Shown one piece after another: positions 47,640 to 48,375 of a DNA stretch of 51,200 nucleotides. Below the pieces are notes generated by a model. It ran no database searches, was not told where the DNA came from, and saw only the letters and a list, made by a program, of their open reading frames with translations. Source of the DNA: Escherichia virus TH26. The stretch lies in the sequence record MT446400.1; one strand, 5' to 3'. Every line of letters starts with the position of its first letter. Position 1 is the first letter of the stretch. A program made the translations under genes and the position numbers.

Positions 47640-48375
47640 TAAAACAAATTAAATAAAGGGTTTTATCCCAATATTGTCACAATATTACATGCGATGATAA
47701 AGCCTTCGCTTGGCTGGAAGCCAGTATTCATGCGGGTTGCAAGAATATTGGGTTAATACTGATACAGCTAATACATGCGAAATTGGCACAAATACTGTTA
47801 CAAAATTAACATGCCAGATTGGTAGACGATTGTATCTTCGAGGTGATTAGTCCTCTAACAATTCTGCCACATTCCAACATGCCAATTTGTAGCAATATTT
47901 ACATGCCATACTGCGACGCAATTGTCACAATATTTGTTGCTCAAAATCGGGCGGCTTCTGCGTGAAAACGAGAGGCTTTGCTCCGACTCTTCTCTTCTTT
48001 CGAATTCTGATTGAAAGAAAGAAGCATGTCCAAAAGTTCCAATATTACCAAAGTTATCTCCCGGCTTGTGGGTGGGCCTTTATAATAGGAGATGTAGCGC
48101 AATTGTCGCAATTGAACATGCTTTAGTTGAAGAACAGTTTCGAATGATAATCCTACTTCACACATGGTTGCTGGAACTTTGTCCGGCCAAAGACAGGGAG
48201 TTCAATGATTGCCACATCATTACAACACTGTATGTTTAGTTGACATGCTGAAATGTTTCTAGAATGATTTCAACATGACATGCGGAAGATTTCTCCGTAT
48301 TCTGTTACTTCACATCCAACTAATGTCGAATATTGAAACAATATTACATGCAGCAATATTGCTTGAATATTGGGA
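47640..48375. repeat. Repeat-rich non-coding region with multiple CAATATTG-type palindromes and ACATGC-containing units
   Basis: At least nine ACATGC units; palindromes AATATTGT-C-ACAATATT at about 47666 and GCAATATTGC at about 48352; no convincing ORF. Confidence 0.5.
48306..48334 (-). promoter_or_regulatory. Conserved promoter-like motif, putative phage-RNAP promoter
   Basis: Plus strand tacttcacatcCAACTAATGtcgaatatt. Confidence 0.45.

Follow-up and report, generated by a model that had tools for sequence, protein, structure and literature searches.

In bacteriophage T7, arrays of the heptamer CCTAAAG are usually suggested to mark the concatemer junction. The pac site of phage P1 contains hexamers of the type TGATCA/G arranged 4+3, the cosB site of phage lambda contains the R sites, and the injection-stop-signal region of phage T5 consists of repeat- and palindrome-rich non-coding DNA at the inner end of a long terminal repeat. 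Here, we describe a gene-free region in the genome of Escherichia virus TH26 (MT446400.1), in which an array of the hexamer GCATGT follows the gene for a single-subunit, T7-like RNA polymerase (RNAP). It is well supported that this is a conserved junction and control region, which combines a terminator, likely promoter copies and the inner end of the direct terminal repeat (DTR) with an oriented array that straddles this end.

The T7 arrays, which we take to be the SRL and SRR of Dunn and Studier 1983, are one-directional. The first 1000 nt of the T7 genome contained 11 copies of CCTAAAG on the sense strand and 0 on the antisense strand; 3 copies were located inside the 160-bp repeat and 8 in the interior at 175-332, with the phage promoter phiOL at 405.

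Genomes of the Chaseviridae, the family to which TH26 belongs, are linear and non-permuted, with DTRs of about 3 kb (PMC12842549), and the repeat has been demonstrated experimentally in phage PYps23T of the same genus (PMC8762354). The array was not described in the literature on the family that we covered, which included ST32, 4HA13, PYps, PP101, and 'Tiny' but not the original phiEcoM-GJ1 and Y2 papers. The only elements of the gap that we found noted before are 2 putative promoters in phiEcoM-GJ1.

A one-directional array of GCATGT units downstream of the RNAP gene

The window, by which we mean the whole stretch of 51,200 nt analyzed here, is a near-complete genome of a phiEcoM-GJ1-like myovirus (Chaseviridae, Cleopatravirinae, Carltongylesvirus). 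Positions 46500-49500 were 91-93% identical to the Escherichia phages TH37, Mangalitsa, and phiEcoM-GJ1 and to the Yersinia phage PYps16N. Positions 1-150 and 51051-51200 were identical. The unit length is thus 51,050 bp, and the record is a circularised or permuted assembly, although the TH26 genome itself is linear with terminal repeats. Relative to the usual GenBank orientation, the window is reverse-complemented, and essentially all genes are therefore located on its minus strand, so that the repeat unit reads GCATGT followed by AATATTGTGACAATATT on the gene strand.

The region, which is located downstream of the RNAP gene in the direction of transcription, was initially annotated as a palindrome- and repeat-dense stretch of about 700 nt at 47640-48375 without open reading frames (ORFs). 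It is indeed gene-free, but the real gap is larger, 47267-48442 (1.18 kb, GC content 0.38), bounded on one side by the RNAP stop codon at 48443 and on the other by the start codon of the following gene (ATG, 47266-47264, minus strand). The absence of ORFs held in substance, in that only mechanical ORFs of 30-74 amino acids were present. The 2 longest sense ORFs of the gap matched no PHROG family, and the cross-genus alignment of the gap was full of frame-breaking indels; the small ORFs often called in the gap are probably not genes. A strong intrinsic terminator, which is annotated at the equivalent position in the SA91KD record, stands between the RNAP gene and the array.

The 9 copies of ACATGC first noted at 47640-48375 were recovered on the plus strand at 47687, 47773, 47809, 47877, 47901, 48116, 48243, 48278, and 48346, compared with 0.43 +/- 0.65 in 1000 dinucleotide shuffles of this segment (maximum 3). 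Additional plus-strand copies were identified at 47462, 47484, and 47540 and a single minus-strand copy at 48024, such that the whole gap (47269-48442) contained 12 plus-strand copies versus 0.60 expected, with a strand bias of 12:1. The hexamer was not enriched in the window as a whole, with 30 copies found versus 39.7 expected. The word CAATATT occurred locally 12 times versus 0.35 expected.

Read on the gene strand, these words form a one-directional array of 12-13 units, each of which consists of GCATGT followed by an AT-rich quasi-palindrome. The hexamer is succeeded by an AT-rich hexamer and then by TTG..ACA..TT, which represents a degenerate form of AATATTGT-N-ACAATATT. The best copy, U9, has the structure GCATGT-AATATTGTGACAATATT-GGGA at 47692-47666. 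The quasi-palindromic cores were enriched, with 9 matches versus 0.55 expected, whereas the spacing between units was irregular, 22-215 nt, with some units only 22-25 nt apart. When the whole genome was scanned on both strands with a position-weight matrix, units were found solely at 47126-48351, and elsewhere none scored above the shuffle background.

The palindromes that had been pointed out were present, AATATTGTCACAATATT at 47670-47686 (17 nt) and GCAATATTGC at 48353-48362, as were related CAATATT elements outside the region, here located at 120-137 and 50981. The site noted at 110-128 and the one at 51171-51188 are a single stretch of DNA, given that the window ends, 1-150 and 51051-51200, repeat each other. 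The region is palindrome-dense only by way of the repeated word CAATATTG; long palindromes (arms of at least 6 nt, spacer of 0-1 nt) numbered 2 versus 0.55 expected, which is not significant. An Rfam scan of 46800-48800 (E<=1) yielded 4 chance-level matches to miRNAs and pseudoknots (best score 20.9 bits versus a gathering score of 98, E 0.6-0.9), and a sliding RNAalifold scan of both strands of a 9-lineage alignment revealed no convincing covariation, the best windows mostly pairing the repeats with each other. The gene-strand reading, the RNAP terminator, the inner boundary of the DTR, and the bracketing copies of a 17-nt motif, to which we return below, go beyond the initial annotation.

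The predicted inner end of the terminal repeat lies inside the array

The record of Mangalitsa gives a PhageTerm repeat of 3234 bp, and the 40 nt before its inner boundary matched window positions 47989-48028 at 40 of 40 sites. This match places the inner boundary of the TH26 repeat between 47989 and 47988, which would be where the array has its widest gap. On the outer side, the Mangalitsa and 4HA13 records have left ends that mapped to about 50757, and the Y2 and PM1 records begin at the same conserved sequence. The TH26 repeat is thereby predicted to span 47989-50757, about 2.77 kb, and to contain the RNAP gene as its sole long gene, the terminator, and only the first of 2 sub-arrays (sub-array A), while sub-array B would remain outside.

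The PhageTerm boundaries of 4HA13 (3120) and Myduc (3202), as well as the boundaries of Y2 (2608) and PM1 (2665) derived from duplicated record ends, were located at the homologous position. In these 4 genomes and in Mangalitsa, the boundary was situated 75-90 nt past an invariant block, TCCTATTATAAAGGCCCACCCACAAGCCGGG, and its counterpart at 48060-48090 in TH26 is the best candidate for a cut-positioning signal. The more distantly related Aeromonas phage ZPAH14, which encodes an RNAP with only 33.6% identity and has a different hexamer, GTATGA, contained an exact terminal duplication of 3373 bp, the boundary of which fell in the gap downstream of the RNAP gene, where 5 units of the GTATGA array precede it and 2 follow. 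The corresponding numbers in TH26 were 4 units before and 8 after, separated by a central gap of 215 nt without sense units. In total, the boundary was positioned inside the array in 7 genomes (TH26, Mangalitsa, 4HA13, Myduc, Y2, PM1, and ZPAH14), and in 6 of them it fell in the largest gap between units.

The array is conserved while the hexamer is lineage-specific

To place the array in its phylogenetic context, we compared TH26 with members of the Cleopatravirinae, namely phiEcoM-GJ1, Mangalitsa, ST32, flopper, SA91KD, 4HA13, Faunus, Y2, PM1, Myduc, and 2 metagenomic genomes. The gap was syntenic in all lineages compared, at RNAP identities down to 66%, and GCATGT was the commonest hexamer of the gap in each of the genomes, with 9-15 copies on the sense strand and 0-1 on the antisense strand. 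In the 9-lineage alignment, the hexamers and about ten other blocks stood out as conserved islands amid diverged DNA; the sub-array A units, in each of which an AT-rich quasi-palindrome of the AATATTGTnACAATATT type comes after GCATGT, had orthologues in the 8 other lineages. In the whole genome of Y2, sense copies of GCATGT were clustered solely in the gap, at 2258-3106.

Phages of the Nefertitivirinae and of Shantouvirus, the RNAPs of which are 31-37% identical to that of TH26, likewise had 1.0-1.3 kb of gene-free DNA downstream of the RNAP gene, although with other strand-specific hexamers. These were GTATGA in Vibrio phage VPs20 and in Aeromonas phages pAh6-C and ZPAH14 (7 sense and 0 antisense copies) and GTGTGA in Shewanella phage Spp001 (8 sense and 0 antisense copies), with some copies in these phages in tight tandem at a spacing of 11-13 nt. 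Across the records of these phages, the arrays were located at 2649-3052, 5123-5490, 4781-5779, and 3078-3444. No extended GTATGA-containing motif was evident in the poorly annotated record of VPs20 when sought as the core of a distributed promoter.

A hexamer that is specific to the lineage fits with co-evolution with a phage protein. Furthermore, the enrichment of the motif, its strand bias, and its conservation across genera exclude chance repeats. The initial suggestion that this is not random intergenic DNA is thus borne out, both by the local enrichment and strand specificity and by synteny across genera with RNAPs that are only 66-76% identical.

Copies of a promoter-like motif bracket the array

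The array is bracketed by P1 and P2, which are perfect copies of a 17-nt motif, CATTAGTTGNATGTGAA, here called the P motif. With up to 3 mismatches allowed, the whole genome contained 12 matches, all on the gene strand, versus 1.0 expected. Mangalitsa contained 12 sense and 0 antisense copies, located 22-193 nt upstream of the genes for the RNAP, gp03 (a small inserted gene), gp04, SSB, gp32, gp45, TerL, and the baseplate hub. Y2 contained 8 sense and 0 antisense copies, including a perfect one before the SSB gene, and copies preceded the RNAP gene and the inserted genes in Myduc, PM1, and 4HA13. P1 was conserved across the aligned genera, and the motif scan recovered its copies in Y2, PM1, and 4HA13. 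Because the motif is genome-wide, sense-only, and mostly located just upstream of genes, it is the probable promoter of the phage RNAP, as judged from its sequence and distribution. According to the ICTV profile of the Chaseviridae, the promoters of the T7-like polymerase have not been identified (PMC12842549).

The sequences of P1 and P2 are the same as those annotated as 'putative phage promoter 1' and 'putative phage promoter 2' in the record of phiEcoM-GJ1 (EF460875), at positions corresponding to 48325-48309 and 47475-47459. That annotation comprises 2 copies only, whereas we identified 12 sense-only copies and found that the motif is kept in other genera. The GCATGT units represent a separate class of elements from these promoters. 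The description of phiEcoM-GJ1 is reportedly that of Jamalludeen et al. 2008. We considered whether the units could be degenerate copies of the P motif and rejected this, since the flanks upstream of the units matched CATTAGTT at a mean of 2.4 of 8 positions compared with 3.2 in control hexamers.

In several relatives, including Faunus, 1-2 small extra genes are inserted between the RNAP terminator and the array (record positions 3654-4111, 2681-2848, and 2251-2613), each with its own upstream copy of the promoter-like motif. These genes are absent from the TH26 window.

Table 1. Features of the RNAP-downstream gap of TH26 and of the genome ends, with window coordinates
Feature	Position	Strand	Description
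Single-subunit (T7-like) RNAP ORF	48443..50629	-	705-aa protein; ORF list; 92-97% amino acid identity to annotated Carltongylesvirus RNAPs; true start probably near 50560
Intrinsic terminator	48408..48435	-	8 nt past the RNAP stop; 12-pair stem with 6 GC pairs, then a T run; terminator scan
Double CAATATT core in AT-rich stretch	48375-48355	-	Between the terminator and U1
Composite element, copy c	48355..48395	+	AATATTGCTTGAATATTGGGA with AT-rich tail; core only; inverted relative to copy a (U9); repeat pair and alignment
Sub-array A, predicted within the terminal repeat	48098..48351	-	4 sense units, U1-U4
GCATGT of U1, U2, U3, U4	48351-48346, 48283-48278, 48248-48243, 48121-48116	-	
P1	48309..48325	-	CATTAGTTGGATGTGAA; perfect copy of the genome-wide promoter-like motif
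Conserved block gaactccctg..tttggccg..caaagttccag	48171..48203	-	Imperfect hairpin; near-invariant in the 9-lineage alignment
31-nt block TCCTATTATAAAGGCCCACCCACAAGCCGGG	48060..48090	-	About 70-100 nt upstream of the predicted terminal-repeat cut; near-invariant in 9 lineages
Lone antisense hexamer	48024..48029	+	GCATGT on the plus strand; kept in Mangalitsa and SA91KD
Predicted inner boundary of the DTR (right end of virion DNA)	47988..47989	.	Homology
Sub-array B, predicted outside the terminal repeat	47459..47934	-	Begins with a hexamer-less core, 47934-47918
GCATGT of U5, U6, U7, U8	47906-47901, 47882-47877, 47814-47809, 47778-47773	-	
GCATGT of U9, U10, U11 and one inside P2	47692-47687, 47545-47540, 47489-47484, 47467-47462	-	
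Conserved block ttagaggactaatcacctcgaagata	47833..47858	-	Between U6 and U7
Composite element, copy a	47620..47686	-	U9 core, 87% A+T tract (47636-47666), then ACATGGTCGGT (47630-47620)
P2	47459..47475	-	CATTAGTTGCATGTGAA; perfect copy of the promoter-like motif
Outlying unit U13, within the first gene downstream	47095..47131	-	GCATGT, 12 nt, two CAATATTG words; position-weight score 20.1
Composite element, copy b	60..141 (= 51110-51191)	-	Core, about 38 nt, then GTACATGGTCGGT; alignments
Predicted outer (left) terminal-repeat end	50757..50758	.	Sense sequence TTAAATACGGTCCC...
P0, upstream of the RNAP gene	50619..50635	-	CATTAGTTGGTTGTGAT; copy of the promoter-like motif
P motif copies 1-6	50635-50619, 48325-48309, 47475-47459, 44709-44693, 41035-41019, 40894-40878	-	
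P motif copies 7-12	40766-40750, 38597-38581, 30812-30796, 26176-26160, 25456-25440, 10986-10970	-	

Comparison with other terminal and junction regions

By analogy, the array may be a variant of the T7-type repeat array beside the terminal repeat. Both are non-coding, have a single orientation, a short invariant word and an irregular spacing, and both straddle the inner boundary of the DTR and are followed by a phage promoter, a putative one in TH26. The T7 unit is a bare heptamer with a spacing of 13-60 nt, whereas the TH26 unit consists of a hexamer and a 17-bp quasi-palindrome with a spacing of 22-215 nt. The T7 repeat is 160 bp, compared with 2.8 kb in TH26, where it carries the RNAP gene. 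Unlike in T7, the predicted TH26 boundary falls in a 215-nt unit-free gap with an invariant block of its own, and the T7 pause word ATCTGTT, which is found at the boundary in T7, was not present near the TH26 boundary. In T7, copies of the heptamer also precede the right-hand repeat on its left side, but near the outer boundary in TH26 no hexamers were found.

The pac site of phage P1 and the lambda cosB site resemble the TH26 region in having short repeated elements on both sides of the terminase cut, with the cut, which is a prediction in TH26, in the unit-free center. The TH26 region is 5-10 times larger, however, and all of its units have one orientation. Moreover, the genome ends in TH26 are exact direct terminal repeats, as opposed to the headful or cohesive type, and no small terminase subunit was recognized. 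Like the injection-stop region of T5, the TH26 region is long, non-coding, and repeat-rich, and both are located where a long repeat with the earliest genes ends on its inner side, but the 2 regions share no sequence similarity and neither a nick system nor DnaA boxes were found in TH26. We know of no report of a two-step DNA entry in the Chaseviridae, unlike in T5.

Possible functions of the array

We tentatively favor, at somewhat less than an even chance, the interpretation that this is a concatemer-junction and terminus-formation region, in which the array serves as an oriented protein-binding platform. The reasons for this preference are that the array and the boundary are linked in 2 subfamilies with different hexamers, that the hexamer is lineage-specific, and that the units occur nowhere else in the genome. 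P1 and P2 would be promoters for the phage RNAP, and the GCATGT units would be bound by a protein that the phage encodes, possibly an accessory factor for packaging or for the terminase, or the RNAP itself in a non-initiating mode. Bound in one orientation, it would cover the DNA on both sides of the junction, and the array together with the invariant block at 48060-48090 would mark the concatemer junction, where the terminase would cut between 47989 and 47988 and the repeat would be duplicated. Transcription from P1 across the junction may help end formation, like T7 RNAP at the T7 concatemer junction.

Several observations weigh against terminus formation as the function of the array. At about 1.2 kb, the array is far longer than known pac or cos sites, and its co-location with the boundary could reflect inherited synteny rather than a functional link. 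The arrays of the Cleopatravirinae are orthologous, and the association with the boundary therefore counts as approximately 2 independent observations, while the inner boundary in TH26 was itself transferred by homology from relatives. Quasi-palindromic cores were found near the outer boundary at about 50757 but no GCATGT hexamers, so that the simple model of one protein marking both cuts does not fit. To our knowledge, the function of the CCTAAAG repeats in T7 is not settled. The sole boundary in the genus that has been determined in the wet laboratory, that of the 2339-bp repeat in PYps23T (PMC8762354), is located at P1 and not in the central gap. Finally, the position of the region, the T7-like replisome and the AT-rich tract fit equally well with a replication origin.

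An origin of the latter kind is the strongest rival, one that we consider unlikely but credible. The region would be a transcription-activated primary origin of the T7 type, at which transcripts from P1 and P2 prime rightward synthesis and the 87% A+T tract melts. The sense strand, once displaced, would receive a gp4-like primase/helicase, for instance at the TGGTC in ACATGGTCGGT, and the units would assist as accessory sites at which loading, priming, or pausing takes place. In T7, the primary origin is made up of the promoters phi1.1A and phi1.1B with an AT-rich stretch. These promoters, the first phage promoters of T7, are located 26-101 nt after the RNAP gene, and P1 in TH26 is located 118 nt after it. 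In both phages, phage promoters, which are putative in TH26, and then an AT-rich tract are found directly downstream of the gene for a single-subunit RNAP, and both have a T7-like primase/helicase and polymerase; the TH26 replisome comprises a gp4A-like primase/helicase, a DNA polymerase, SSB, and a 5'-3' exonuclease.

The sequence downstream of U9 also bears on the origin, in that the A+T tract at 47636-47666 is followed by a tggtcggttt block that is conserved in 9 lineages. TGGTC is a recognition word of the T7-type primase, which may not be the word recognized by the primase of this phage. A second composite copy is present near the other genome end, as with the secondary origins in T7. The cumulative GC skew was flat over the terminal repeat and rose steadily from about 47500, but this change coincides equally well with the start of the gene block driven by P2, the first gene of which begins 190-193 nt downstream of P2, and effects of replication and transcription are inseparable here. 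The T7 primary origin covers only about 0.2 kb, compared with about 1.2 kb in TH26, and contains neither a repeat array nor a repeat boundary. The TH26 region combines direct repeats with the A+T tract, as an iteron-type origin would, but the spacing of the units is irregular, unlike that of iterons, and no Rep-type initiator is annotated in Mangalitsa. Nor does an origin account for the position of the boundary in the central gap of the array in 2 subfamilies.

It is rather improbable that the units are recognized by the phage RNAP, be it as a second class of promoters or as pause or capture sites. Many polymerases would be loaded just past the early terminator, so as to draw the remainder of the genome into the cell or to transcribe the genes downstream; another option is that the units stall the RNAP at the junction, as does the class II signal in T7. 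In T7, the pause signal ATCTGTT begins at nt 161, exactly at the repeat boundary. The units are all oriented with transcription and start right after the terminator that stops the host polymerase, the hexamer varies with the RNAP lineage, GCATGT is followed by an AT-rich hexamer and a G in loose similarity to the melting and start region of T7-type promoters, and P2 contains GCATGT. Yet, it is the P motif rather than the units that has the genome-wide, gene-proximal distribution expected of a real promoter. The units are confined to a single array of 1.2 kb with none upstream of other genes, and their upstream flanks are, as described above, unlike the CATTAGTT half of the P motif. The hexamers in the Aeromonas and Vibrio phages, 11-13 nt apart, are too close to be independent promoters, and some of the units in TH26 are 22-25 nt apart.

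We see only a small chance that the 17-bp quasi-palindromes are operators, bound by a dimeric regulator from the phage or the host that switches P1 and P2 and possibly also controls read-through of the terminator in the transition from early to middle expression. The initial annotation had drawn attention to a resemblance to clustered operator sites, and both the enrichment of the cores and their dyad symmetry, which is typical of dimeric helix-turn-helix sites, agree with this, as do the 2 cores that abut P1 (48375-48329) and the overlap of U11 with P2. However, the part that is invariant across genera is the asymmetric hexamer and not the palindrome. Most units are far from any promoter, 13 sites over 1.2 kb would be unusual, no candidate regulator was identified, and the strict orientation and the link to the boundary would be left unexplained.

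A host sigma-70 promoter array of the T7 A1-A3 type, which had also been proposed at the outset, or an AT-rich spacer with chance repeats is very improbable, because despite the low GC content and a few matches such as TTGACA-17-AATGAT at 48240 on the plus strand, the number of sigma-70 sites was 9 compared with 5.4 +/- 2.3 in shuffles, the best of them is antisense and points against the genes, the best sense-strand sites scored only 9 of 12, and a spacer with chance repeats is excluded by the enrichment, strand bias and cross-genus conservation.

The functions in terminus formation, replication, polymerase binding, and regulation are not mutually exclusive.

Additional features of the repeat ends and the genome

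Copies a and b of the composite element make up an imperfect direct repeat, about 85 nt long (AATATTGnnACAATATT and GTACATGGTCGGT with about 38 nt between them), and bracket the terminal repeat at 300-430 nt outside each boundary; copy b is about 350-430 nt outside the outer boundary. The outer boundary has repeats of its own within 50700-50950, including CCGATAGG, which occurs twice, 45 nt apart, and flanks the terminus (50715-50722 and 50760-50767), CTTCCCCTCCTCG at 50776 and 50821, and a 37-nt repeat at 50860 and 50907. The sequence AATTCTAGTCTC(G/A)TTAAT is also found twice near this boundary (50883 and 50956). We inspected by eye a possible resemblance of the left-end sequence to the invariant block and discarded it, because conservation among genera did not extend to the left-end part.

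A run of 32 A residues (poly-T on the gene strand) is located at 50988-51019, about 230 nt outside the outer end of the repeat. The relatives contain 9-16 T residues at the same place, which indicates that the tract is conserved but unusually long in TH26, either by a real expansion or by assembly slippage.

The 2339-bp repeat in the record of PYps23T (MW147598) starts and ends at the same position inside 2 copies of the promoter-like motif, between ATTAGTTGGA and CGTGAA in one copy and between CATTAGTTGGA and TGTGAAG in the other (record positions 1-20 and 2320-2360). Five other genomes place both ends elsewhere. The ends in PYps23T could have been generated by template switching between motif copies during PCR, or they could represent a real promoter-linked nick or end.

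Elsewhere in the window, a protein of 61 amino acids with 2 CxxC pairs (zinc-ribbon-like) is encoded at 25437-25622 on the minus strand, directly upstream of and overlapping the gene for the large terminase; its PHROG match was to a family of unknown function. An HNH or endonuclease VII-like ORF is located just upstream of it (26004-26447, minus strand). A second small protein is encoded upstream of TerL at 25678-26007. A search against PHROG recognized no small terminase subunit among the small ORFs upstream of TerL. The GC content increased to 0.51-0.53 within 11001-13000, compared with about 0.44 elsewhere; this stretch may have been acquired by horizontal exchange.

Implications for terminus formation in the Chaseviridae

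How phages with exact terminal repeats of kilobase length choose and duplicate their ends is poorly understood. It is conceivable, although we regard it as unlikely in this full form, that the Chaseviridae mark the inner end of the DTR with a lineage-specific, one-directional hexamer array (GCATGT in the Cleopatravirinae and GTATGA or GTGTGA in the relatives from Aeromonas, Vibrio, and Shewanella), with transcription from P1 driving end formation, with CATTAGTTGNATGTGAA as the RNAP promoter and with the ends in PYps23T representing a real promoter-linked nick or end; the reader of the array would be a phage protein or a pausing RNAP. The finding of the array and the boundary together in 2 subfamilies with different hexamers provides a defined sequence element to mutate. 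The region also holds the 2 best copies of the candidate promoter motif, which makes the promoter question directly testable. For annotators, the analysis locates the true genome ends in a family in which many records are circularly permuted or have an arbitrary start.

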